Positions 26,256-62,119 of a stretch of DNA of 64,000 nucleotides are shown piece by piece. The DNA is from an uncultured Candidatus Saccharibacteria bacterium (GTDB lineage Bacteria > Patescibacteriota > Saccharimonadia > CAZBQI01). The notes under the pieces are model-generated. The model had not been told where the DNA came from, did no database searches, and saw only the letters and a program-made list of their open reading frames with translations. Numbering within the stretch: position 1 is the stretch's first letter; every line of letters starts with the position of its first letter. The stretch covers positions 21,737 through 85,736 of the forward strand of contig CAZBQI010000003.1 in NCBI GenBank assembly GCA_964494105.1, in the 5' to 3' direction. The position numbers and the translations under genes were made by a program.

Positions 26256-26290
26256 TTGACACCAGTATACTAGCATGCTAGTATACTAAA
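26256..26290 (+). promoter_or_regulatory. promoter plus perfect 24-bp palindromic operator (AGTATACTAGCATGCTAGTATACT) for the TrpR-like regulator
   Basis: TTGACA at 26256-26261. The palindrome at 26264-26287 is a perfect reverse complement of itself, contains CTAG half-sites, and covers the spacer and -10 (TAGTAT 26279-26284). The ATG follows at 26293. Confidence 0.55.
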
Positions 26291-26292
26291 TT

Positions 26293-26595
26293 ATGTTATC
26301 AAAACATGATCAAGAACTAGTTACATTATTTACAAAGACAACAGATTACAATCTGATGGAGAACTTATTGTCTGGTATTTTAACGCCCGGCGAACGCACA
26401 GAAATAGCGCAGCGGCTGCAGATTATAAAGTTGCTACTTGATGGCGTGCCACAAGCAAAAATCGCTAAAGACCTCGGAGTTGGAATTGCGACCGTAACAC
26501 GGGGTTCACGTGCAGTAAAAAGCGGCTATTTTAAGGTGTTACAACAAAAAAGTGATCAAAAAATAACGGAGCACTCGCTTCGTTGGCGCTCATAG
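26293..26595 (+). CDS. TrpR-like (YerC/YecD family) DNA-binding protein
   Basis: 100 aa. TPGERTEIAQRLQIIKLLLDGVPQAKIAKDLGVGIATVTRGSR matches the Trp-repressor-like HTH of YerC/YecD proteins. Confidence 0.7.
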   Translation: MLSKHDQELVTLFTKTTDYNLMENLLSGILTPGERTEIAQRLQIIKLLLDGVPQAKIAKDLGVGIATVTRGSRAVKSGYFKVLQQKSDQKITEHSLRWRS

Positions 26596-48475: not shown

Positions 48476-49170
48476 TAATTGTTATTTTACTATTACAGCT
48501 ACTAACCATCATTTTAGTTATTTGGCTGAGAGGAAGAATGCAAACTAGTACTGCAGGGAATGTGCCAAAATACGTGGTCGATACGTCCGCCCTAATTGAT
48601 GGTCGCATGGAAAACGTAGCCAAACATGGTTTTATGCCAGGAACCATATTTATCCCAAAGTTCGTCTTGGCAGAGTTGCAACACATTGCCGACAGTACAA
48701 ACGAACTAAGACGTTCTCGCGGGCGATTTGGCCTTGAGCTTGTGCGCACATTACAAGCATCATCTGAAACTGACGTTATCATTATTAATGATAACCCAAC
48801 CAAAATAGCCAAAGTAGACGACAAGTTAGTAGAGGTGGCGAAAAAAAGGCGCGCCGCCATTATTACTACCGATTTTAACTTAAATCGAGTAGCCGTAATT
48901 CAGGATGTAACAGTGTTAAACGTTAATGAACTGGCTCATGCCTTAAGACCCATCGTTTTGCCCGGGGAAGAAGTTGTAATTAAGCTTGTTCAAAAAGGAA
49001 GCGATGCTCATCAAGGGGTTGGCTATCTAGAGGATGGAACAATGGTCGTGGTTGATCATGCCAATCGCTTAATTGGGCGCGAAGTAAAAGTAAATGTAAC
49101 CAGAATAATGCAAACAGTAGCAGGTAAAATGCTATTCGCTAGTTTGGTTAAAAGAGCGCAAAAAGATTAA
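48472..49170 (+). CDS. PIN/TRAM-domain protein (YacL-like)
   Basis: N-terminal TM, PIN domain (VVDTSALIDGR, TTDFNL) and a C-terminal TRAM-like beta domain. The radA-yacL adjacency is as in Bacillus. Confidence 0.7.
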   Translation: MIIVILLLQLLTIILVIWLRGRMQTSTAGNVPKYVVDTSALIDGRMENVAKHGFMPGTIFIPKFVLAELQHIADSTNELRRSRGRFGLELVRTLQASSETDVIIINDNPTKIAKVDDKLVEVAKKRRAAIITTDFNLNRVAVIQDVTVLNVNELAHALRPIVLPGEEVVIKLVQKGSDAHQGVGYLEDGTMVVVDHANRLIGREVKVNVTRIMQTVAGKMLFASLVKRAQKD

Positions 49171-51898
49171 ATAGCTCTTGAAAGACTGGCATGTTCTGAA
49201 TTCTTCTTAGTGTTGTTGGTGCTTGGGTGTAGTCGATACTAACAGTTGCCGCTCCACTGTATAGCGCGGCATCAGTGACTTCTGCTGTGAATGTATAGTT
49301 GCCTGTGGCTGTGGGAGTATAGGTAGTTACAAAAGTACCACTTCCGTTGATGGCCGGTGAGTTTATTACCTGGCCGTTGTATTTAATTTCAAGCTTGTTA
49401 GCAATATGTGTGCCGCTACTAACGCTAGTGGTTATCTGGATTGTGTTACCAGATGTTTGTGCAGTTAAGCTCACTGTTGGTTTTACGTCAGTACATTTGT
49501 GCAAGTCGTCGGTTGCCGAACCGGCGGGCACATTGCCACCACCGCCGATACCCAGGCCGAGTGTAGCTCCCAGTTGCTGAACCGGCGGGTTCCAACGAGC
49601 AAAAGCCGGATCGCTGGGTGGAATCTCGGCCTCAAGTCCTTGCCCGGTAACTGTTTGTTTGGCGGCCTCGGGCGTACATGCCGTTGCAATCTTGTTTGAT
49701 ACTTTGTCGATTACTACCGTTTGACTACCTGCTGGTGGTTTGGCTGTGTACCAAGAAGGAAAAACATCGGTATGTCGCACACGAGTATTTGGCCCGGGCA
49801 TTTTGCCGGTGAAAGAATCAAGTGTAACCTGCTTAATGCCTGCGGGCTTATCGAACTGCTTATTTGGTACCCCTTCTAGTGCTTTCTTCATAAAGGCCGC
49901 CCAAGTTGTACCGGTTAAACGACTGGTAATACCTGACATGCTGCGGTTTTGTGTATGGCCAACCCAAACTCCAGTGACCAAATCAGGTGAATAGCCTATC
50001 ATCCAGCCGTCTTTATTTTTATCGGTAGTTCCGGTTTTAACTGCCGTTACATGGCCAGGTATGTTCATGTCCGGGTTGTTGCGACCAAACGTAGTTGTAC
50101 GGGTACTGTCGTCGCTGAGGATGTTATTAATTAAATACGAAACCTGGGGGTCTAGAACTCTTTTGCCTTTTGGATTTGAATTATCAATTAGAGTTTTGCC
50201 CTGAGGATTAGTGACTTTTAGAATCGGTGTTTGTGGATAGTGCATGCCACCGTTGGCAAATGATTGGTAAGCATTGACGTGATCTGCCAGTTTAATTTCA
50301 CCGGCGCCAAGCACCAGGCTTAACCCGAAATCACTTGGATTCTGCAGAGTGGTTATCCCCATGCTGTGGGCTGTATCTAAGGCTGCCTGCAAACCGACAA
50401 TATACAGCATTTTTACGGCTGGAATATTAAATGAGTTGTTTATTGCACTTCTTATGGTCATTTGGCCATGAAAGCGGTTGTCGTAGTTATTTGGAACGTA
50501 GCCGCCAAAATCGGTTCTGACGTCATACATAACGCTTCCTGGACCCCAGTTATTTGTTTTAAACCCAGTTGCATATACGTATGGCTTAAAGCTCGAACCC
50601 GGCTGTCTCCGTGCTAGTGCCGCATTAAATGTACCGAACTCCGGATAGTTGAAGTCCCGACTTCCAACCATAGCGAGGACTTGTCCGTTCTTTGGATCAC
50701 CAGCAACAAGCGCGATATTGTTTCCGCCGGCTCTATCTACCACACCAATACCATTTTTAACTGCTTCCTCGGCTTTTGCTTGTTTATCAAGATCAAGGGT
50801 AGTAATAACTTTTAGACCACCTTCGGTAACCTGCTTGTTGCCAAGTTTTTCTTCTAATACCGATTGGGCATGTAGCACAAAGTGGGGTGCGGTCATGTCA
50901 CGGTAGAGGTTGGGCGTATTGTTGACTTTGGCCAGAGTATCGGTAGCTTTAGCGGTTTTCGCCTGATCGGCTGTAATATAGCCTTGTTCTTGCATTTGAG
51001 TAATAACTAAATCACGACGGTTTTTGAGGTCTTCGGTATTTGCACCGTATGGAGAGTAGTAGCTTGGAGCTCTCGGTAGGGCCGCAAGCATGGCCGCCTC
51101 ATCAATCGTTAAGTCTTTGGCCGGTTTAGAAAAATACGTCTTTGAGGCCGCTTGTACGCCATAGGCCAATGTGCCGTAGGGTATTTCATTTAAATAAAGT
51201 TCTAGGATGTCGTCTTTGCTGTAGAGCTGCTCAATTTGAATCGATAAAATTAGCTCTTTTATTTTTCGAGAAAAGGTTCGCTCTGGCGATAACAAGGCAT
51301 TCTTGACGTACTGCTGGGTAATGGTAGAGCCACCCTGAATGGTATCGCTACTTTTAAAGACATTATTAACGGCAGCGCGCAGTATCCCAAAACTACTAAA
51401 AGCCCCATGATTATAAAAATCCTTATCTTCTATCGCAATTGTCGCGTGCTTGATGTTGTCGTTCATATCATTTAGGTCGACAACGGTGCGATTTTTATCG
51501 CCGTATACCTCATATAACAATTTTTGCCCTGTGCGGTCATAAAATCGAGTTGTTTGAGCGAGTCCAAGACTATTTACTTTACCCGGGCTCGGCAAGTCCT
51601 TGGCAAAGAACAGGAATAAACCGGCAATACTAATGAATAGCAATCCTGCGCTCACGCCGGCAATTTTGAGTGCTGTTATTTTACCTTCATGGGTAAACCA
51701 AAAATCGGTAAACCGTTTCGGATTCATGTACCACAGCCATCGGCGATACCATTTATTCGGTGGGTTCACATTGGCATGCGCGCGGAGTTTGCGTGCGACT
51801 CTAGCTGAGTCCGCAGTACTCTTGAAACGTTTTACCGGAGATTTTAGGATGCGCTTTATTCGACTCATAAGGTTGTTATATTCTACCCCAAATATCAC
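49148..51898 (-). CDS. class A penicillin-binding protein (transglycosylase plus transpeptidase) with C-terminal Ig-like extension
   Basis: GT51 motifs (IAIEDKDFYNHGA, GGSTITQQYVKN), transpeptidase SxxK/SxN/KTG (KTGTTD), and a C-terminal Thr/Gly-rich beta domain of about 170 aa. Confidence 0.9.
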   Translation of the reverse strand: MIFGVEYNNLMSRIKRILKSPVKRFKSTADSARVARKLRAHANVNPPNKWYRRWLWYMNPKRFTDFWFTHEGKITALKIAGVSAGLLFISIAGLFLFFAKDLPSPGKVNSLGLAQTTRFYDRTGQKLLYEVYGDKNRTVVDLNDMNDNIKHATIAIEDKDFYNHGAFSSFGILRAAVNNVFKSSDTIQGGSTITQQYVKNALLSPERTFSRKIKELILSIQIEQLYSKDDILELYLNEIPYGTLAYGVQAASKTYFSKPAKDLTIDEAAMLAALPRAPSYYSPYGANTEDLKNRRDLVITQMQEQGYITADQAKTAKATDTLAKVNNTPNLYRDMTAPHFVLHAQSVLEEKLGNKQVTEGGLKVITTLDLDKQAKAEEAVKNGIGVVDRAGGNNIALVAGDPKNGQVLAMVGSRDFNYPEFGTFNAALARRQPGSSFKPYVYATGFKTNNWGPGSVMYDVRTDFGGYVPNNYDNRFHGQMTIRSAINNSFNIPAVKMLYIVGLQAALDTAHSMGITTLQNPSDFGLSLVLGAGEIKLADHVNAYQSFANGGMHYPQTPILKVTNPQGKTLIDNSNPKGKRVLDPQVSYLINNILSDDSTRTTTFGRNNPDMNIPGHVTAVKTGTTDKNKDGWMIGYSPDLVTGVWVGHTQNRSMSGITSRLTGTTWAAFMKKALEGVPNKQFDKPAGIKQVTLDSFTGKMPGPNTRVRHTDVFPSWYTAKPPAGSQTVVIDKVSNKIATACTPEAAKQTVTGQGLEAEIPPSDPAFARWNPPVQQLGATLGLGIGGGGNVPAGSATDDLHKCTDVKPTVSLTAQTSGNTIQITTSVSSGTHIANKLEIKYNGQVINSPAINGSGTFVTTYTPTATGNYTFTAEVTDAALYSGAATVSIDYTQAPTTLRRIQNMPVFQELFNLFALF

Positions 51899-53215: not shown

Positions 53216-54859
53216 ATGTCTGATATTCCGGGAGCAAATATGGGTGCGGGTGAAATCGTCGCTGGTAGCCGGCCAGAATTAGCATTCCGTACCAGTAGTA
53301 GCGAATTTGAGCAGGGTCATCAAGTGGTAGAAATACCGCTAATTCGAAGTGATCTTGAGTTAACCGCAACAACACAAATAGTTAGGCCAAACGGAGAGGT
53401 TATTGACCCTCTAGGTACAGATGAGCAGCGATTTGAAGCAGTGCGCTCGACTGGTGCGGACCTTAGTTATACATTGAGGTCTAGCGAGGAGACACCAACA
53501 TTCCTGACTGCCCTCAGGGCTTATGACGGTTGGAGATATTCGCGTACTAGTGAGGTAGCAACCGCACCGCTTGAAGGTAACGAGGCTAATGGCTATCGCC
53601 CTCAGCACGTGTTTGAAATACCTCTGAGCGCAGTTAATTTTAGTGGCTTAGCAAGCAGTATTATGTCTACAGGTGACCGCGCTATTTATGCACACACGGA
53701 AGACCTAAACCCAGATGGTTCAGACGCTCATATTGGAGTGGCAATGTACGGCGTTGATATCTCTACAGATGGGATTTCTATTTCAGCCGTCGAGCCTGAT
53801 GATGCTGGAGAGCTTCATGTGGCAAAAATAACTGCAGAAGACTCAAGTAAGCGCAGTGGCGTTGATTTATATCTTGAGCTAAACGAAGCCGAAGATACAC
53901 TAAGAATTATAATCCAAAGCGCAAGTGAACAGCTTATCTCAAAAATAGCCTCGCGCGTTGCCAGAGTGTATGCCGGAGGAGTAGGTTCCATTACTGGGAA
54001 TAGATTAGGTGACTATACCCAACCGCTTAAAGATGCACTACCGGGGCGAATTAAGTATGTACCATTTCAAGATAGAGTTGTTAGTAGCCGGGAAGCTGAG
54101 ATTAAGCGTCGACTAATGGATGGCTATAGGCCTGACCAAGGTATTGAATGGCCAAAGTTACCAGAAATACCCTGGGGAACCCTAGGTAAAATTGGTGGTG
54201 TAGTTGCCGTAATCGCTTTGTTAAGTATGCTGCGTTCATGTGATTTCGATTTTGATTTTAGTGGTCCTGAGCCAAAGGCGCAGGCACCCGACTTGCTTAG
54301 TTGTGCTGCAACGGACTTTGAAGTACCAGGTGACTTTTCATCTCAAGTTGCAAATATGACGCCGGATGAGTTTACCGAAAGTCTACGCCGACAAGGTTTG
54401 AGTGCGGCGGATGCAGACGAATTACAGCAGTTAGCCGGTGTCGTATTAAGCCTTGATGGAGAGAGCGAAACCACAAGTCAATTGAATGCGTTAAATGCGC
54501 TTGGTGTAATCGCTGACCACGCTCAGAATATCGATAGTGGTTCTTTATTGGAAGAGAAAACCGGTGTCTTGGTAACTGCTGTGTGTCATATTAATGGCTT
54601 GCCACTACATAAAAGCTTTACAGTTGAGGCAAGTGGACCATGGTTACTAAGTTCATTGCATGATTTAGACACAGAGGGCGTTTTAAGCGAACAACAAAAA
54701 GTCGCTATTGTCCGATTACTAATGGCTGTGAGAAATCCGGTCGAAATGGACCCAGATACCAATGGCAACCCAACCATCAGCGATTGGCAGGGAATTACAA
54801 CCGAAAATAGCCACATTCAGGTTGGCCAAAACGGCCGAGTTGCCATTTTCCCTAATTAA
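53216..54859 (+). CDS. hypothetical bitopic membrane protein (547 aa)
   Basis: No signal peptide. One central TM helix (LGKIGGVVAVIALLSML) between two soluble domains of 310 and 210 aa. Acidic; no known motif. Confidence 0.45.
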   Translation: MSDIPGANMGAGEIVAGSRPELAFRTSSSEFEQGHQVVEIPLIRSDLELTATTQIVRPNGEVIDPLGTDEQRFEAVRSTGADLSYTLRSSEETPTFLTALRAYDGWRYSRTSEVATAPLEGNEANGYRPQHVFEIPLSAVNFSGLASSIMSTGDRAIYAHTEDLNPDGSDAHIGVAMYGVDISTDGISISAVEPDDAGELHVAKITAEDSSKRSGVDLYLELNEAEDTLRIIIQSASEQLISKIASRVARVYAGGVGSITGNRLGDYTQPLKDALPGRIKYVPFQDRVVSSREAEIKRRLMDGYRPDQGIEWPKLPEIPWGTLGKIGGVVAVIALLSMLRSCDFDFDFSGPEPKAQAPDLLSCAATDFEVPGDFSSQVANMTPDEFTESLRRQGLSAADADELQQLAGVVLSLDGESETTSQLNALNALGVIADHAQNIDSGSLLEEKTGVLVTAVCHINGLPLHKSFTVEASGPWLLSSLHDLDTEGVLSEQQKVAIVRLLMAVRNPVEMDPDTNGNPTISDWQGITTENSHIQVGQNGRVAIFPN

Positions 54860-57093: not shown

Positions 57094-57924
57094 ATGTATC
57101 CAGGCCTGACACTCACTAAACATTCCGGTAGTTGGATTGGCGCCCACCAGCGGCTGAATCGCATTGCTTATCGAGTAATCGCTCCGGAAGTGAAAGCTAA
57201 ATCATTTCCGGCACTTAAGCAAATAAACTATTTTGAGGGTACGAATGGCCCGGACGGCTTGAAACGAAAATCCTCGGGCAAGCACGAACCACTGCATTTT
57301 TATGATCCGGCAACCGACAAGGGGGGCGTGAAAGCTGAAATTACCAACCACTACAATCAGCTTGTAATCGCCTTGAAACAGCGCGACGGTATTCGCTCAG
57401 CATTCGAGGCTAGCTGGTTGGCTCATGCTGTTACTGACGGCTTAACACCGGCACACCATTACCCGTACGTTGAAAAGATGAACGAATTGCTAGAAAACAG
57501 CAATCACGAGGTTAATCGGTTTAAAGACAAGGCAATTGTGCACGGCAACACCAAGCGTGAGACGGTAAAGCAGACGTGGAAGTTGGTAGGTTCAAAGGGG
57601 TTAATTTCGATGCATGCCCATTTTGAAATCGGTTTTTCCGCGGTTTTACTTGGCAAAAAAATAACCGTTCGTTTGGATCGGCTAGAGCTTGAGAGAGCCC
57701 GAAAGATCGGGGCACTTGGGTTTTTTAAAGAACAGGCAAGAATGGTAGCAGAGTTAAAAATGTACGAACGTTTTTATCAAAAAGCTTGGACAGTCGGTTT
57801 GGCTCGTCAGGCACGTAATGTCCTGGCGCCCACTATTGCTCAAACAGTAGCCATTATATGGTTGTTAGCTTACGAAGAGGCCGGGTATCAGCTAAAGAGT
57901 TCTCTTCTCGGAAGAATAGGGTAA
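57094..57924 (+). CDS. zinc-dependent phospholipase C / S1-P1 nuclease superfamily-like protein, tentative
   Basis: AHAVTDGLTPAHH fits the HxxxDxxxPxH zinc-ligand motif of the PLC/P1-nuclease fold, with additional conserved His residues. Otherwise unannotatable. Confidence 0.35.
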   Translation: MYPGLTLTKHSGSWIGAHQRLNRIAYRVIAPEVKAKSFPALKQINYFEGTNGPDGLKRKSSGKHEPLHFYDPATDKGGVKAEITNHYNQLVIALKQRDGIRSAFEASWLAHAVTDGLTPAHHYPYVEKMNELLENSNHEVNRFKDKAIVHGNTKRETVKQTWKLVGSKGLISMHAHFEIGFSAVLLGKKITVRLDRLELERARKIGALGFFKEQARMVAELKMYERFYQKAWTVGLARQARNVLAPTIAQTVAIIWLLAYEEAGYQLKSSLLGRIG

Positions 57925-58467: not shown

Positions 58468-58496
58468 ATAATCTATAATCAATTAAGTTGGTGCTA

Positions 58497-58583
58497 GCCG
58501 CGGTGGCGGAATTGGCAGACGCGCTAGGTTTAGGACCTAGTGAGGTTACACTCGTGAGAGTTCGAGTCTCTCCCGCGGCACCA
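58497..58583 (+). tRNA. tRNA-Leu (anticodon TAG), type II with long variable arm and encoded CCA
   Basis: 7-bp acceptor stem GCCGCGG/CCGCGGC. Anticodon stem CTAGG/CCTAG with loop TTTAGGA. T arm GAGAG-TTCGAGT-CTCTC. Discriminator A plus CCA. TATAAT at 58474-58479 lies upstream. Confidence 0.85.
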
Positions 58584-58711
58584 TTGACAAACATAGTATT
58601 TATGTTTATTATTACTTTTATGTTAAAACTTACAGCTAATCAGTTGCATGCACATATCGAGCCGGAGGCTATTGGCTAGATATTCCTATTGTAATTTTTT
58701 GGATACATTTC

Positions 58712-58736
58712 GCCGGTAGCAACACCGGCTTTTTTT
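58712..58736 (+). terminator. rho-independent terminator (GCCGGT-agcaac-ACCGGC followed by T7)
   Basis: 6-bp GC-rich stem with a 6-nt loop, followed by TTTTTTT at 58730-58736. Downstream of tRNA-Leu. Confidence 0.6.
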
Positions 58737-58738
58737 AT

Positions 58739-58761
58739 GCCCTGATTCATTGAATCAGGGC
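58739..58761 (+). terminator. second hairpin (10-bp stem GCCCTGATTC/GAATCAGGGC) with weak U-tract
   Basis: Perfect 10-bp inverted repeat immediately after the first terminator, followed by GTTTGTATT. Confidence 0.35.
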
Positions 58762-58798
58762 GTTTGTATTCAATTAATTTAACAAGAAGGAATTTATA

Positions 58799-60124
58799 AT
58801 GAGAATTTTAGATATTACAGATACGGACAAAGTTCCCTACCAAGCTACAGATGTGTGGCGGGAGGCATTTAGTCGACCGCCTTATATGGAACAATATACT
58901 CCTGCAGAGGCTCAGGATATTTTGATCGATTTAGTTGGCCAAAACGGCGATTTATTGCTTGGCCAGGTAGACGGAGAAATTATTGCTGTTGCAGGTGGTC
59001 AATTTGATGGTGAATCAACATATTGGCTAGAAGAATTAGCAGTAAAACCAGAGCTACAGGGTCGTGGTTTAGGAAGAGAAATCTTTAGAGCCCTAATTGA
59101 TCGCGCATTAAATAAAGTACCGGAAAATTTAGCTCTTCGTACCAGTACCGAAAACTCAAAGGCACTTCAGCTTTATGAGTCCGAAGGTTTTACGCCTAAT
59201 GGCAAAAAAATTGTCGTGCCAAGTCGTAGAACAGATGGGCGAATTCGCTTAGACGAAAGAGTATATTTAACCAAACCAAATCAGGAGGTAGATGTGAAGG
59301 AGCCAATAACACTAAATAGACTGGCCGTTGTCTACCCGTCGGGCAATACAACGGCTCTAGTTTTCGATCAACTACTAGATAGCAATAGGCAAGAGCTAAA
59401 CGAGGGAATAATGCAGGCATGGAAAATTGAACACCCTGAGGAATCAGAAATTGAACAATGTTGTTTTGTGACTATACCAAATGATTCACTTTCAATAGCG
59501 CGAGTGGAAATGTTCGGCGGAGAGTTTTGCGGCAATGCGACTCGTAGTGTAATTGCACTACTAACAAAAGGCCAAAACTACAGAGGCTTTATCGAAGTTT
59601 CTGGCGTGACTAAACCATTGCAATTTAAAGTTAAAGACGGAGATATAGAGCTAGAGATGCCCTTACCACCAGCGAATAAAGTATCTAAGGTAATAAATGA
59701 AGGAACGCTTGTAACTCTTGACGGAATTACTCAGCTTGTTGTTATAGATCCTGAACAGCGTGAATCGCAGACAGCTAGAGAACTTCTGGAGTCACTCTTG
59801 GCAGAAAATAAATACGGTCTAGGTGGACAGCCGGCTGTAGGAGTGAGCTACTACGATGAAGACTCAAAGAAAGCTAACTTCTGTGTTTGGGTTAAAGAGA
59901 TCAATACAATATTTGACGAGACTGCATGTGGTAGTGGCACCTGTTCGATAGGAGTGGCGGTGGCCACTAGCCAGGGTGAAGATGTCGCGCTTGAAGTTGT
60001 TCAACCTTCTGGGGAAATCATCGCTACTTCTGCAACTGTTGCTAACGGAACAGAATTAGTAACATCTTCTAAAATTTCAGGCCCTGTTAGTGTCATGTAC
60101 GATGGTAGGATGGAGATCGCATGA
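58799..60124 (+). CDS. fusion protein: N-terminal GNAT acetyltransferase plus C-terminal DapF/PhzF-fold (diaminopimelate-epimerase-like) domain
   Basis: The N-terminal ~160 aa carry a GNAT motif (LAVKPELQGRGLGREIFRALIDRA). The C-terminal ~270 aa carry two DapF-type active-site Cys motifs, FGGEFCGNATRSV (cf. MCGNGxRC) and ETACGSGTCSIGVA (cf. ETxACGTGxxA). Confidence 0.55.
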   Translation: MRILDITDTDKVPYQATDVWREAFSRPPYMEQYTPAEAQDILIDLVGQNGDLLLGQVDGEIIAVAGGQFDGESTYWLEELAVKPELQGRGLGREIFRALIDRALNKVPENLALRTSTENSKALQLYESEGFTPNGKKIVVPSRRTDGRIRLDERVYLTKPNQEVDVKEPITLNRLAVVYPSGNTTALVFDQLLDSNRQELNEGIMQAWKIEHPEESEIEQCCFVTIPNDSLSIARVEMFGGEFCGNATRSVIALLTKGQNYRGFIEVSGVTKPLQFKVKDGDIELEMPLPPANKVSKVINEGTLVTLDGITQLVVIDPEQRESQTARELLESLLAENKYGLGGQPAVGVSYYDEDSKKANFCVWVKEINTIFDETACGSGTCSIGVAVATSQGEDVALEVVQPSGEIIATSATVANGTELVTSSKISGPVSVMYDGRMEIA

Positions 60125-60807
60125 GGAAGAGTGAAATTTACTCTCTGCTCAGACGAAAAGTAGTTCAGTACAAAGATTTGGTAGATGTCGATGTTAAGGA
60201 CTGCGGAGAAGGCCTGGCGGCTATCAGAAAAACGCAGATGCTTAGTGGGCTACAGACCGATCAAGACATGGTAGATTTTACGGGCAAGAAAGTATATGTC
60301 CGACAAACAGTTTCTCGTTTGCTTTTACTAGCCGCTAAGTCATTAAGGCAGGTGGATGGGCGATTGAGCTTACAGGTTGTTTATGGCTATCGCGCAAACA
60401 GCGTGCAAAAAGCTATGTTTAGTTCGGCACTAAAACAACTTAACAAGAAATATGCTGGCGACGAGCTTTATTCCGAAGCACACAAGCTCATCGCTGTACC
60501 AGATGTAGCTGGGCACCCTACTGGCGGAGCTGTTGATATACGTATTTTAAAAAGTGGAGTACCTGTTGATATGGGGACCGAGGTCGACGCATTTAACAGC
60601 CCAGATATTTTGGTGTTCTCTCCGTTTATTTCTAAAAATGCGTGGCGCAACCGAATGCTTCTTCGTCGCGTGATGATGAATGTTGGGTTTGCGCCTTTTG
60701 ATGGCGAGTGGTGGCACTTTTGTTACGGCGATAAAGAATGGGCGAAATATTATGCCAAGCCAAATGCAATTTACGAGCAAGTCGAGTTCAGTGAAATCAG
60801 TAAGTGA
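60121..60807 (+). CDS. D-alanyl-D-alanine dipeptidase-like (VanX/DdpX, M15D) protein
   Basis: VPDVAGHPTGGAVD (SxHxxGxAxD zinc site) and FDGEWWHF (catalytic E-W-W-H), with VanX-like size. ATGA overlap with the upstream fusion gene. Confidence 0.7.
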   Translation: MRKSEIYSLLRRKVVQYKDLVDVDVKDCGEGLAAIRKTQMLSGLQTDQDMVDFTGKKVYVRQTVSRLLLLAAKSLRQVDGRLSLQVVYGYRANSVQKAMFSSALKQLNKKYAGDELYSEAHKLIAVPDVAGHPTGGAVDIRILKSGVPVDMGTEVDAFNSPDILVFSPFISKNAWRNRMLLRRVMMNVGFAPFDGEWWHFCYGDKEWAKYYAKPNAIYEQVEFSEISK

Positions 60808-60841
60808 AAACATTATCTGATACACTCAGAAGGAGAAGAAA

Positions 60842-62119
60842 ATGGCAAAGCTAAGTACACAACCATATAAGGGCGCTCGGGACTTTTACCCCGAGGATAT
60901 GCGTCTGCAGAAGTACATCTTTAACACCTGGCGAGCAGTAGCCGAACGCTACGGTTTCGAGGAATACGATGCACCACTACTTGAGCCAACAGATATGTAC
61001 CGGGCTAAAACTGGTGAGGAGATAGTAAATGACCAAACCTATAGCTTTACAGACCGCGGTGGTCGCGAAGTAACAATCCGGCCGGAAATGACACCCTCGG
61101 TAGCTCGACTAGTTGCCGCCCGCCAGCAGGAATTACCGTATCCGTTACGCTGGTATAACATAGGCACGCGTTGGCGGTACGAACGCCCGCAGCGCGGACG
61201 CTTGCGTGAATTTTACCAATTCGATGCTGATATTTTTGGTGTTGAAAGTATAGACGCCGAGTTTGAGCTGATAAAAATGGCGTCGAACATGATGAAGGCC
61301 TTTAAAGCACAGGATGACATGTTCAAAATTCGTATCAATAGCCGAAAACTATTTAGCTTGCTGATGGGTGAGTTCTTAAGTCTTGGGATTGAAGACTCGC
61401 ACAAGCTTTCAAAGTTGTTAGATCGTAAAGCTAAAATGACCGACGATGCGTTTGAGAGCCAGGCAAAAGTAATTTTAGGTGATAACACCGTGAAGCTGAT
61501 GGAGCTTATAAGTGTGAAAGACATAAATGAACTTCCTTCAAGTGTAGTCGAAAGCGGACTGGTAGAAGAGTTGCGATCGTTATTTGCCCAGCTTGAAGCA
61601 CATGAAGTTACGAATTTTGAGTTCGACCTAACTCTGATGCGCGGGTTTGATTACTATACCGGCATAGTATTTGAAATATTCGATACCAGCCCCGAAAATA
61701 ATCGCTCGTTGTTTGGTGGCGGTCGTTACGACGAGTTGACTTCAATTTTTGACGCTCCGGCAGTGCCGGCCATTGGCTTTGCTGTGTCAGACGCCGTGAT
61801 TACTAACTTTTTGGAAACTCACCAGCTGTTACCGGCTTTTCCATCAACCACGCAGGTTTATATTGCGACCGTTGGAGATTTTGACGAGCAGGCTCAGGCA
61901 TTAGCGTCAGAATTGCGCAAAGAGGGCATTAACGCGGCGGTAGACGTAACTGACCGCAAGCCAGCCACAAAGATTCGTCAGGCGGATAAGCAAGACATTG
62001 GCTTGGTAATTTTTGTAGGTGAAAATGAAATTAGTGAGGAAAAGTATACTCTCAAGAATTTAAATAGCGGTGATGAACAAAAATTGAGTGTGTCTGACCT
62101 TGCCAAGGCGATAAAATAA
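60842..62119 (+). CDS. hisS: histidine--tRNA ligase
   Basis: Class II aaRS motifs (RDFYPEDM, TIRPEMTP, GGGRYDEL) and a C-terminal anticodon-binding domain. AAGGAG RBS. Confidence 0.95.
   Translation: MAKLSTQPYKGARDFYPEDMRLQKYIFNTWRAVAERYGFEEYDAPLLEPTDMYRAKTGEEIVNDQTYSFTDRGGREVTIRPEMTPSVARLVAARQQELPYPLRWYNIGTRWRYERPQRGRLREFYQFDADIFGVESIDAEFELIKMASNMMKAFKAQDDMFKIRINSRKLFSLLMGEFLSLGIEDSHKLSKLLDRKAKMTDDAFESQAKVILGDNTVKLMELISVKDINELPSSVVESGLVEELRSLFAQLEAHEVTNFEFDLTLMRGFDYYTGIVFEIFDTSPENNRSLFGGGRYDELTSIFDAPAVPAIGFAVSDAVITNFLETHQLLPAFPSTTQVYIATVGDFDEQAQALASELRKEGINAAVDVTDRKPATKIRQADKQDIGLVIFVGENEISEEKYTLKNLNSGDEQKLSVSDLAKAIK

Follow-up and report, generated by a model that had tools for sequence, protein, structure and literature searches.

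What would a bacterium gain from joining an acetyltransferase to an amino-acid racemase and coupling both to a VanX-like peptidase? The question is raised by two overlapping genes in the window, a 64,000-nt stretch of DNA from an uncultured Candidatus Saccharibacteria bacterium, for which an earlier note had put forward a compact pathway dealing with D-amino acids. Our analysis supports that idea. The explanation we favor, and to which we give an even chance of being right, is that of a histidine-starvation-induced operon for D-histidine salvage or detoxification, comprising a leader with an attenuator, a GNAT-racemase fusion, a VanX-like D-specific amidase and hisS (Table 1).

Table 1. Features of the module and its surroundings (window positions)
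Feature	Position	Strand	Remarks
tRNA-Leu	58497-58583		upstream of the module
Promoter-like site TTGACA-17-TATTAT	58584..58612	+	11/12 consensus; directly after tRNA-Leu
Leader ORF (19 codons), MLKLTANQLHAHIEPEAIG then stop	58620..58679	+	His codons 58647-58649, 58653-58655
Predicted attenuator	58659..58736	+	leader-ORF 3′ end vs terminator T1
T2, second 12-bp hairpin	58737..58763	+	weak U-tail; terminator scan
GNAT/histidine-racemase-like bifunctional protein gene	58799..60124	+	441 aa
GNAT N-acyltransferase domain	58799..59293	+	aa 1-165; Pfam PF00583/PF13508
CntK/HisR-type two-cysteine racemase domain	59306..60121	+	aa 170-441
VanX-family (M15D) predicted zinc amidase/dipeptidase gene	60121..60807	+	228 aa
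hisS (histidine-tRNA ligase)	60842..62119	+	TIGR00442, 368 bits vs cutoff 286.75

A recurrent fusion gene followed by a VanX-family gene

Both ORFs, the racemase cysteine motifs and the 4-nt overlap described in the earlier note are all present. The overlap is the ATGA at 60121-60124, where the start codon of the peptidase lies on the stop codon of the fusion, and, judging from the sequence, the two genes are translationally coupled. In our comparative set of about 80 loci, for the most part from CPR bacteria, 43 have an M15 gene directly 3′ of the racemase gene, and at 25 of 41 junctions the gap is -4 nt to the nucleotide. Among racemase-GNAT fusions with room downstream, 31/34 are directly followed by M15: 19/21 in the GNAT-RAC order and 12/13 in the reversed order (RAC-GNAT), which Pfam confirmed on locus L048. 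With phmmer, the fusion architecture was recovered in 69 clusters (50% identity) at E ≤ 1e-30, and about 100 full-length fusions were among the matches listed in the first homolog search, so that the architecture is far beyond chance. Among CPR bacteria the module is common, with examples from Saccharibacteria, Microgenomates and other groups; elsewhere it is sporadic.

The fusion had not been recognized from characterized enzymes, and we likewise found no characterized equivalent: literature searches on histidine racemases with acetyltransferase or HisRS yielded no report of a GNAT-histidine racemase fusion, the one relevant paper being silent on it, a plasmid search gave no copies of it, PADLOC gave no defense-system match, and no relative of it above 57% identity turned up when metagenomes were scanned. 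The racemase and M15 genes also occur without GNAT in the His-regulated loci L020, L023, L027 and L030, a retention of the two-enzyme core that fits salvage. In L031, L033 and L037, a protein that we call c29 stands in the place of GNAT; it has a weak TyrRS-like fold match (HUP/TyrRS-like) and a PP-loop-like TSLGGYDG, and no match in Pfam, NCBIfam or PDB sequences.

The racemase domain resembles histidine racemases

Of the two catalytic cysteines noted earlier, C244 lies in FCGNATRSV and C377 in ETACGSGTCS; both are conserved, varying little or not at all among 26 aligned homologs, and are kept, along with E219, E242 and E374, in 46-47 of 47 M15-linked homologs. The AlphaFold2 model of the 441-aa protein (pLDDT 92.9, pTM 0.90) agrees with the predicted superfamily fold of the C-terminal domain: it displays the two-domain fold of the DapF superfamily, with one catalytic Cys at a helix N terminus in each domain, and its Foldseek matches within the superfamily are CntK, HisR, YddE, PhzF and HypE. 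This two-Cys fold is common to the whole superfamily rather than specific to DapF. Thus, of the DapF-type domain that had been proposed, the superfamily fold and the Cys pair stand, while the DapF identity was rejected: TIGR00652 scored 19.6 bits against a cutoff of 114.65, PF01678 scored 15.6 bits against 34.7 and covered only aa 375-410, and no DapF structure was found among the top 50 Foldseek matches.

The best NCBIfam matches are CntK (NF033599, 2e-22) and the HisR racemase (NF052224, 2e-14), both below the equivalog cutoffs (79.8 vs 300 and 53.7 vs 400 bits, respectively). A PDB sequence search at E ≤ 1e-3 returned only CntK (3e-14) and the HisR racemase (2e-10), Foldseek ranks 1-8 are all CntK/HisR racemases (6jis at 7e-19, 9cr6/9cr1 at about 1e-16), and the precomputed Pfam assignment is PF26317 (CntK_N). 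G182-N183 correspond to the N-terminal G-N motif of the racemase domain, as in CntK and the HisR racemase. Imidazole-binding glutamates have been proposed for histidine racemases (HisR E49/E65/E206, CntK E46/E208; PMC11602996), and E219, E242 and E374 align with E49/E65/E206 of the HisR racemase and E46/E70/E208 of CntK. By these alignments and the model, the domain is a racemase of the CntK/HisR histidine-racemase type; with scores that lie far below the NCBIfam CntK and HisR cutoffs, histidine is its predicted substrate.

By the same scores, the domain belongs to a subfamily distinct from both. It shares the fold, the Cys pair, the glutamates and the G-N motif with CntK of the Staphylococcus aureus staphylopine pathway and with HisR/FN1732 of Fusobacterium nucleatum, but is only 23-25% identical to them and is fused to GNAT, in a module that is linked to M15 and hisS, is predicted to be histidine-regulated, and lacks cntL/cntM. 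No cntL/cntM neighbors, as in a staphylopine-type cluster, were found in the window or as a recurrent cluster in the 80 loci. To our knowledge, only two cofactor-independent histidine racemases have been characterized so far.

The acetyltransferase and the VanX-like enzyme

A Pfam comparison confirmed the acetyltransferase half of the fusion, PF00583 (Acetyltransf_1) matching aa 27-131 at 4e-14 (53.3 bits vs cutoff 20.7). The acetyl-CoA motif reads Q87-G-R-G-L-G92, with Q87, G90 and G92 invariant in 26 aligned sequences; F24, P28, Y29, E31, E79, Y126, D152 and R154 are further family invariants, the last two being carried by a conserved beta-hairpin (aa 132-160), and the domain retains its predicted acyl-CoA site. 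On the AlphaFold2 model, Foldseek found GNAT matches at TM(target) 0.7-0.8. The structural neighbors are the amino-acid-analogue N-acetyltransferases PAT (1yr0), PA4866 and YncA, and also RimI; structural and HMM neighbors together further include ArsN1/2 and streptothricin acetyltransferases.

The second protein matches Peptidase_M15 (PF01427, 5e-19, 69.2 bits vs cutoff 27). Its R91, H132, D139, E196 and H199 align with VanX R71, H116, D123, E181 and H184, and across 43 racemase-linked homologs the conservation of all five catalytic residues is 98% or higher. The VanX zinc site seen earlier is therefore complete, except that its “SxH” is in fact A130-G-H132, lacking the Ser. The equivalog models were missed (VanX 38.8 vs 320 bits; DdpX, PRK10178, 55 vs 176 bits), conserved VanX positions carry substitutions specific to the family (for example, Y109 to A125, S115 to G131 and L180 to G195), and H121, E206 and R61 are new. 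Within the VanX family (M15D) the protein is thus a divergent member that keeps a full predicted catalytic set; its D-specificity is predicted from the family and a D-His-containing substrate from the context. It has the Zn ligands, the catalytic Glu and the Arg in common with VanX/DdpX (MEROPS M15D), and differs from them by its family-specific substitutions and by having no van or ddp neighbors.

Together, the three activities recall an operon of Geobacillus kaustophilus in which, as Sakai et al. reportedly described in 2006, a GNAT succinyltransferase, an N-succinylamino-acid racemase and an M20 hydrolase carry out D-to-L conversion. The pathway of Sakai et al. is cited in PMC12006748. There, as here, one operon unites an N-acyltransferase and a racemase with a stereospecific metallo-amidohydrolase, and by the same logic the module could perform an acyl-dependent, irreversible stereoinversion, in which GNAT would acylate one enantiomer, the racemase would act on N-acyl-His, and a stereospecific M15 amidase would release the other enantiomer. 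Such a scheme would give all three enzymes a non-futile role and explain the fusion, and the M20 amidohydrolases found in 8 loci would suit it. We nevertheless regard it as very unlikely. The racemase here has the DapF fold, not the enolase fold, and its G-N motif and pocket are those of the free-amino-acid racemases CntK/HisR; the hydrolase is of M15, a D-specific family, rather than M20; and the module is fused and, by prediction, histidine-specific. We know of no DapF-fold enzyme that uses N-acyl substrates. Moreover, racemase-M15 loci without GNAT could not work in this way, and a D-specific M15 would impose a net flux from L to D, at odds with induction by His starvation.

The genomic context points to histidine

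In 80 loci, the recurrent neighbors are hisS, the hisR repressor gene, hisG, M20 peptidases and transporters. In the window, a 34-nt spacer with an SD-like AGGAG and no terminator separates the peptidase gene from hisS. Of 41 M15-linked loci, 19, from several phyla, have a genuine HisRS gene no more than 2.5 kb away, each scoring above the TIGR00442 cutoff, and cassettes of Nocardia and Nitriliruptoraceae carry hisG plus a xenologous second HisRS, which in Nocardia has only two close relatives, the next best match being 57% identical. A single “cassette HisRS” clade was rejected, as the module-linked HisRS are 27-36% identical between types.

A gene for the YerC/YecD repressor lies directly 5′ of the module in 28 loci. 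This protein has been identified as HisR, a repressor that depends on L-His (PMC9413887) and whose operator is a 20-bp palindrome, cacTTTAnnnnnnTAAAgtg, located upstream. In 14 loci, the operator tACTTTACTTTGaTAAAGTa matches this published consensus, scoring 26-33 bits where the 99th percentile of the background is 11.4. In the window, no HisR-repressor gene was found upstream, the best operator PWM score was -3.6 and pattern matches were at chance level; the YerC/TrpR-like gene that the window does contain (26294-26592) has a different palindrome, occurring there only. Four independent features thus point to histidine, namely hisS, hisG, the HisR/YerC repressor and the His-codon attenuator described below.

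These neighbors bear on the theme suggested earlier, that a DapF-like epimerase/acetyltransferase and a dipeptidase, inserted at the tRNA-Leu, act on stem peptides of peptidoglycan or on a D-Ala-D-Ala-like compound; a vanC-like remodeling set of racemase and D,D-dipeptidase would be a variant. D-Ala-D-Ala is the only characterized M15D substrate (by Pfam and NCBIfam names), the racemase fold is within the DapF superfamily, and a class A PBP, encoded at 49148-51898, shows that the organism makes peptidoglycan. Clusters of the vanC, vanE and vanG type, which consist of a VanT racemase, a D-Ala-D-Ser ligase and a VanXY D,D-peptidase, likewise couple an amino-acid racemase genetically to an M15 D,D-peptidase. 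However, VanT is PLP-dependent and Ser/Ala-specific, whereas the window module has neither an ATP-grasp ligase nor VanRS and is predicted to be regulated by histidine. With the DapF model far under its cutoff and DapF missing from the top structures, with no mur, ddl or van genes in the conserved neighborhood, and with hisS, hisG, the HisR/YerC repressor and a His attenuator in their place, we find a peptidoglycan or DAP role extremely unlikely. The tRNA-Leu does lie upstream of the module and no integrase is nearby (window ORFs, Pfam), both as stated before. An integration hotspot is contradicted by synteny, the order RsmD-tRNA-Leu-module-hisS-tig being repeated in L002 and L033, and by a GC content that stays flat throughout (0.40-0.48). 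A genomic or defense island was rejected on these grounds, together with the lack of an integrase, a plasmid copy and a PADLOC match.

A third reading, suggested by GNAT neighbors that detoxify antimetabolites (PAT, PA4866, YncA, ArsN1/2 and the streptothricin acetyltransferases), is immunity to a histidine antimetabolite or HisRS inhibitor, in the manner of MccE/MccF. The peptidase would cleave the compound, GNAT would acetylate the alpha-amine of the warhead and the racemase would invert the warhead, while the extra HisRS (and HisG) would outcompete the compound and induction would follow a drop in tRNA-His charging. In MccE/MccF (microcin C) and yeast Hpa3/Dnt1, which share the GNAT fold, alpha-amine acetylation neutralizes a toxic amino-acid derivative, and in MccE/MccF, as in the window module, GNAT is accompanied by a peptidase, with an aaRS as the target; neither system has anything like the racemase domain, and there is no known toxin here. 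The foreign second HisRS of Nocardia is a usual hallmark of target-based resistance, and the attenuator would sense tRNA charging, not free His alone. This reading still seems quite unlikely to us, as the module HisRS are not of one clade and in CPR genomes have housekeeping genes around them, the racemase has lost no residue of a free-histidine racemase, and the HisR-repressor operator answers to L-His itself. We know of no natural HisRS inhibitor of such a kind.

A predicted His-codon attenuator precedes the module

Returning to salvage and its proposed induction, we found that the leader ORF of the window has homologues in L002 (ending in LHTHIEPEAIG), L026 (ending in NQHHAHILPERIG) and L033 (ending in NQHHLHISPEPVG). 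The promoter-like site, a candidate from its sequence, is the likely start of the leader transcript; the 215-nt spacer that holds it is 89-94% identical to that of L002, compared with 62-78% for the flanking CDS. According to the terminator scan, T1 is a stem-loop at 58712-58729 with a T-run to 58736, and nucleotides 58659-58676, at the 3′ end of the leader ORF, are able to pair with it in an antiterminator. The MFE fold of the leader is this antiterminator form (-58 kcal/mol, z = -5.65), and in the identical element of L002 the ORF-tail:terminator duplex reaches -24.1 kcal/mol against a shuffle median of -10.0. L002 also has T2, with an A-to-G change that leaves a G-U pair in the stem, and the scan found no terminator-like site from 58917 to 61765. 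The “tandem terminators” of the earlier note thus exist as two terminator-like hairpins, but as parts of a conserved leader/attenuator.

The same attenuator logic, with lineage-specific complementary sequences, was found in 17/22 leader-bearing loci, the window included: a terminator follows 22-34 nt after a His-rich leader peptide or HisR-repressor tail, and the 3′ end of the ORF can sequester it. The window leader has the features of a leader-peptide His attenuator, which is its predicted function, with only two His codons. Since a metagenome scan for the leader sequence gave no match and no metagenomic relative of the fusion exceeds 57% identity, covariation of the window leader is comparable with L002 only; Rfam gave the tRNA only, with sub-threshold sRNA matches for the leader. 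In 9 other loci, the leader-peptide motif is the C-terminal tail of a HisR/YerC-like repressor, suggesting that in many operons the repressor gene, with its tail, supplies the His-codon leader of the attenuator. We have not seen a leader formed by a repressor's own C-terminal tail described before. The operator consensus, His-codon leader and terminator/antiterminator are like those of the HisR (YerC) regulon and his-operon attenuators; in contrast to these, the genes regulated here are not those of his biosynthesis or transport. Overall, the operon appears to be switched on when histidine is short.

A model for D-histidine salvage or detoxification

We propose that low His-tRNA(His), caused by L-His scarcity or by D-His interfering with charging, would stall ribosomes at the leader His codons, so that the antiterminator would form and the operon be transcribed. 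The M15 enzyme would then act on X-D-His dipeptides or N-acyl-D-His, cleaving the amide bond at the amino group of D-His, the racemase domain would convert D-His to L-His, and the extra HisRS would charge the L-His made, D-His sources being salvaged in this way. The fused GNAT would most likely N-acylate the alpha-amine of D-His, as a cap or an overflow for a D-amino acid that inhibits the growth of some bacteria. CPR bacteria generally lack amino-acid biosynthesis, and the organism is probably unable to make histidine. Of 15 D-amino acids, D-His inhibited the growth of Streptococcus mutans most (PMC12269051).

The weakest steps of this mechanism are the role of GNAT and the direction of net flux. 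A GNAT that acetylates D-His and is joined to a reversible racemase would draw off L-His just when it is scarce, and hydrolysis of the GNAT product by M15 would make the three enzymes a futile cycle. Also against salvage, the window has no HisR repressor gene or operator, and its leader has two His codons only; and we know of no natural source of X-D-His compounds. Furthermore, two independent fusions suggest that the racemase product feeds GNAT, and hence a biosynthetic direction, as do hisG in the actinobacterial cassettes and P0104, a KR-ACP-GNAT-racemase protein.

In such a direction, L-His would be racemized and D-His captured by the fused GNAT to give a wanted N-acetyl- or N-acyl-D-histidine, serving as a signal, a metal ligand, or an effector directed at host or competitors, while M15 would recycle the product or protect the producer and hisS and hisG would secure the histidine supply. 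The occurrence of both domain orders is a classic sign of consecutive reactions; in P0104, GNAT-racemase follows KR-ACP, where an acyl chain would pass to the amine; and a Nocardia cluster combines hisG and the xenologous HisRS with an EgtD-like methyltransferase, a GT4 glycosyltransferase and a carbamoyltransferase. The bioactivity of D-His (PMC12269051) and, weakly, the replacement of GNAT by c29, a putative amide-forming enzyme, are consistent with it. We consider biosynthesis unlikely all the same, because predicted induction by histidine shortage and repression by L-His would be odd for a histidine-consuming pathway, several His-regulated loci do without GNAT, the product would be destroyed by a D-specific amidase expressed alongside in the cytoplasm, and a literature search found no mention of N-acetyl-D-histidine. 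Equally doubtful is the broader proposal that CPR episymbionts, some chlamydiae, predatory alphaproteobacteria and actinomycetes, many of whose operons have the repressor-tail attenuator, make D-His or N-acyl-D-His deliberately under histidine starvation. This would be a new effector or signal, for instance one that perturbs host or competitors to free histidine, with the VanX-like enzyme and the co-transcribed HisRS shielding the producer.

D-Histidine biology is almost unexplored, and the operon described here is conserved, uncharacterized and found mostly in uncultivated, host-dependent bacteria. In it, a histidine racemase is fused to an N-acyltransferase and its gene is coupled to hisS and the gene of a D-specific peptidase, while regulation appears to tie the whole to the supply of histidine. 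If salvage or detoxification is true, the operon reveals how auxotrophs for amino acids, with their tiny genomes, exploit or withstand D-amino acids; biosynthesis, if true, points to a new metabolite. Either would extend the VanX family past D-Ala-D-Ala, and the HisR regulon past biosynthesis and transport.

A histidine-racemase-like fusion translationally coupled to a VanX-type peptidase

The earlier note had described two overlapping ORFs, and both were recovered as described, together with the two motifs read in their products: a GNAT-racemase fusion protein (hereafter the fusion) and the VanX-type protein M15, which share an ATGA as stop and start codon (60121-60124), with an SD-like GGAG directly upstream. 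The first domain of the fusion was borne out as a GNAT (PF00583, aa 27-131, 53 bits against a threshold of 20.7) that retains Q87-x-x-G90-x-G92 in a homolog alignment; RimI and amino-acid-analogue N-acetyltransferases (PAT, PA4866 and YncA) are among its structural neighbours.

The second domain had been called DapF-like. Its superfamily fold held up, as an AlphaFold2 model of the fusion, built on an input alignment of 26 homologs, was confident (pLDDT 92.9, pTM 0.90) and Foldseek returned CntK/HisR as matches 1-8, followed by YddE, PhzF and hydroxyproline epimerase, with DapF structures absent from the best 50 matches. The DapF identity did not: the top NCBIfam matches of aa 178-437 are the histidine racemases CntK (2e-22) and Fusobacterium nucleatum HisR (2e-14), also the only finds of a PDB sequence search, whereas the DapF model, with its cutoff of 114.65 bits, gave 19.6 and the Pfam DapF match was sub-threshold and confined to aa 375-410. 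In the HisR racemase, the imidazole of histidine is proposed to be bound by Glu65 (E-x-C67), Glu206 (E-x-x-C209) and Glu49, equivalent to CntK Glu46 (PMC11602996). Residue-level alignments place E242-F-C244, E374-T-A-C377 and E219 of the fusion onto these positions, and G182-N183 onto the N-terminal G-N motif. All are retained in 46-47 of 47 peptidase-linked homologs, including both cysteines that had been called catalytic (C244 and C377), which upholds that part of the claim. Because CntK and HisR are the best matches, DapF falls under its cutoff and the pocket residues are kept, the domain is, as judged from sequence and predicted structure, histidine-racemase-like rather than DapF.

M15 passes the Peptidase_M15 threshold (PF01427, 69 bits against 27), and its R91, H132, D139, E196 and H199 align with VanX R71, H116, D123, E181 and H184, in agreement with the zinc site first noticed; these five residues are at least 98% conserved among 43 homologs. 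The VanX sequence used as reference is consistent with the PDB alignment. The SxHxxGxAxD motif is present except for its leading Ser, which is Ala here (A130-G-H132). All parts thus belong to known superfamilies, yet every curated equivalog test failed: the racemase domain scores well under the CntK and HisR cutoffs, and M15 far under those of VanX and DdpX.

Features of the module and its leader in the window
Feature	Position	Strand	Remark
tRNA-Leu	58497-58583		
Near-consensus promoter	58584-58612		in 215-nt spacer
Leader ORF	58620-58679		in 215-nt spacer; 19 codons, MLKLTANQLHAHIEPEAIG*
Terminator T1	58712-58729 plus T7		in 215-nt spacer; terminator-like hairpin
Second hairpin	58737-58763		terminator-like hairpin
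Fusion ORF	58799-60124	+	441 aa
M15 ORF	60121-60807	+	228 aa
hisS	60842-62119		first gene after M15; TIGR00442, 368 bits against 286.75

Conservation of the module

A first homolog search returned ~100 full-length relatives of the fusion (43-70% identity), mainly from Saccharibacteria and other Patescibacteria, plus Nocardia, and an exhaustive phmmer search gave 69 clusters (50% identity) at E<=1e-30. Across 79 loci from a genome scan, with architectures called by locally built HMMs, the GNAT-racemase order occurs in 24 loci, with M15 directly downstream in 19 of the 21 having downstream room; the reversed order, racemase-GNAT, occurs in 13, with M15 directly downstream in 12, and forms one single ORF in 11 (the C-terminal GNAT was verified by Pfam in a Levybacteria locus, L048). 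The racemase stands alone in 43 loci, 12 of them with M15 directly downstream. The distance from racemase stop to M15 start is exactly -4 nt at 25 of 41 junctions. Two independent fusions and a retained translational coupling therefore show that the three activities belong together.

Other contexts were also seen. In Clostridia MAGs (L052, L058, L064, L069, L072, L074), a stand-alone CntK/HisR-like racemase, ~33% identical, is part of a conserved row of glycolytic genes, flanked by pgk and tpiA-gpmI and without M15 or hisS. Genes for M20-family amidohydrolases/dipeptidases adjoin the racemase in eight loci (L029, L061, L065, L066, L067, L081 and L082 among them). L021 (Parachlamydiales) and L025 have a sodium:solute symporter ahead of the racemase, and 10 Microgenomates-type loci have an EamA transporter after hisS.

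The tRNA-Leu locus had been taken for an integration hotspot, a reading that synteny speaks against: L002, whose fusion is 70% identical, and L033 (Saccharibacteria UBA5150) share with the window the order RsmD, tRNA-Leu, module, hisS, tig, clpP. GC content is flat across the locus, at which no integrase and no defence-system match was found, and no plasmid copies of the fusion were found. The RsmD-tRNA-Leu spacer measures 29 nt in the window (58468-58496) and 712 nt in L002 (4990-5701), where it encodes a 201-aa ORF, yet the tRNA and the leader after it hardly differ; the change in length has the look of a local indel upstream of the tRNA. Two conserved ORFs in the window, 57094-57924 (276 aa) and 53216-54859 (547 aa), gave no significant Pfam match; the former, also without a PADLOC match, is syntenic in L002 and L033.

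Ties of the module to histidine

The module is tied to histidine by hisS, hisG, the HisR repressor and an attenuator, four mutually independent links. The window hisS encodes a genuine HisRS and follows M15 after a terminator-free 34-nt spacer. Of 41 M15-linked loci, 19 carry HisRS genes within 2.5 kb, all of them above cutoff; Saccharibacteria, Microgenomates-group phyla, Actinomycetota, and alpha- and gammaproteobacterial MAGs are represented. A single travelling hisS cassette is ruled out, because the module-linked HisRS proteins are of different types (27-36% mutual identity). In Actinomycetota hisG joins the module, in the order HisRS(-), fusion, M15, HisG in Nocardia sp. NPDC050697 and fusion-M15-HisRS-HisG in a Nitriliruptoraceae MAG. 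The Nocardia HisRS has two close relatives only, the next best being 57% identical and from unrelated phyla, so it is an extra, foreign copy; a second Nocardia retains M15-HisG...HisRS, with the fusion absent. In Nocardia spp. (L001:3449-13275, L083:3546-13964), the fusion, M15, HisG and foreign-HisRS genes sit inside a variable cluster with an EgtD-like histidine methyltransferase (PF10017), GT4 glycosyltransferase, carbamoyltransferase, nucleoside hydrolase, HAD phosphatase and MFS transporters; the cluster may make a histidine-derived natural product and confer self-resistance of the target type.

A ~106-aa YerC/YecD gene of the TrpR family (TIGR02531) lies directly upstream in 28 loci. YerC is HisR, a repressor dependent on L-histidine that targets his biosynthesis and transport genes at the operator consensus cacTTTAnnnnnnTAAAgtg (PMC9413887), and tACTTTACTTTGaTAAAGTa occurs at the 5′ end of the YerC/YecD gene in 14 loci, with scores of 26-33 bits (99th percentile of the background, 11.4). 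Elsewhere in the window there is another YerC/TrpR-family gene (26294-26592; PF01371, 1.5e-19), with a 909-aa PPDK_N/PEP-utiliser protein after it. Ahead of this gene stands a perfect 22-nt palindrome, GTATACTAGCATGCTAGTATAC (26265-26286), which is found nowhere else in the window and more closely resembles a TrpR-type than a HisR-type operator.

A predicted histidine attenuator

tRNA-Leu and the fusion are separated by a 215-nt spacer that shares 89-94% identity with its L002 counterpart, the flanking genes showing just 62-78% DNA identity. In its minimum free energy fold (z = -5.65), the last codons of the leader ORF (58659-58676) pair with T1 to form an antiterminator. What had been read as tandem terminators is thus part of this attenuator. 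Homologous leaders precede the module in L002, L026 (..NQHHAHILPERIG*) and L033 (..NQHHLHISPEPVG*), and unrelated His-rich leaders in L010/L018 (..SHHTH..), L047, L061 and L077 (HHH/HHHH). In nine loci (L004, L007, L009, L011, L014, L023, L027, L030, L031; e.g., L004:1151-1483), the same motif, ..HH(S/G/D)HI.PARA*, forms the C-terminal tail of the HisR-like protein, and one short gene is there predicted to encode a His-sensing repressor and, in its last codons, a tRNA-His-sensing attenuator of the operon downstream.

Of 22 loci with such leaders or tails, 17 have a terminator 22-34 nt past the stop codon, with which the final 33 nt of the ORF pair far more strongly than shuffled controls do, at -16 to -29 kcal/mol against medians of -8 to -13 (fraction of shuffles at or below the observed energy, 0-0.015). 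Different lineages use different complementary sequences (GCCGG.., CGCCGGA.., GCCAGC.., CCCGC.., CCCTCTC.., CCCCGC..), so that the pairing in effect covaries. The window leader and its relatives have the classic his-leader design, which predicts read-through into the operon under a shortage of His-tRNA(His). Between T1 and the fusion start codon lies another strong 12-bp hairpin, kept in L002 with a G-U-compatible change; the model leaves it aside, and it could be a second terminator, a stability element or a processing site.

Proposed role

The loci display the domain identities, catalytic residues, coupling, histidine-specific context and regulatory elements; the substrates and direction of flux we infer. 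Amino-acid-specific repression or attenuation normally controls genes that raise that amino acid or its charged tRNA, and CPR bacteria are generally amino-acid auxotrophs. On these grounds, and because four His-regulated loci (L020, L023, L027, L030) keep a racemase and M15 core without GNAT, we favour D-histidine salvage or detoxification, at about an even chance. M15 would free D-His from X-D-His or N-acyl-D-His, the racemase domain would convert it to L-His for use by HisRS, and the GNAT would cap D-His, a compound that inhibits the growth of at least one bacterium (PMC12269051).

If the GNAT acetylated D-His beside a reversible racemase, L-His would be lost just when the cell is starved of it, which is hard to fit with salvage. 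Fusion in both domain orders and hisG in the actinobacterial cassettes better suit the biosynthetic direction, with N-acyl-D-His as product, as does P0104 (L084:1-2169, JGI metagenome), a 722-aa protein with KR and acyl-carrier (PP-binding) domains before a GNAT-racemase unit, whose layout suggests release of a polyketide-type acyl chain onto (D-)histidine. We nonetheless consider biosynthesis rather unlikely. In L031 (4635-5999), L033 (2113-3414) and L037, the place of GNAT is taken by a 430-500-aa protein family, c29 (P0244-P0256), encoded directly upstream of the racemase, its stop codon overlapping the racemase start codon. It has no Pfam, NCBIfam or PDB sequence match and just 13 relatives among 5.8 billion proteins; its AF2 model (pLDDT 85) gives weak TyrRS/TrpRS-like (HUP-like) fold matches, and it carries a PP-loop-like TSLGGYDG motif. 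Should it be a ligase, it would be a further sign that D-His is joined through an amide bond.

Immunity to a histidine antimetabolite, MccE/MccF-like, seems improbable to us. We see a slim chance of acylation-dependent stereoinversion like the Sakai 2006 pathway. The D-amino-acid pathway proposed at the outset is supported, but its peptidoglycan/DAP theme is highly improbable given the histidine-type racemase residues and the hisS, hisG, HisR and attenuator context.

The closest functional analogues are CntK and HisR for the racemase chemistry, VanX and DdpX for the amidase chemistry, the Geobacillus GNAT, racemase and hydrolase operon and vanC-type racemase and D,D-peptidase clusters for the pathway logic, and his attenuators and the HisR regulon for the control. 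In the literature searches, no account was found of the fusion, its pairing with M15 and hisS, or N-acetyl-D-histidine. What is unexpected in the module is its histidine substrate theme, and what is unusual is its regulatory layout.
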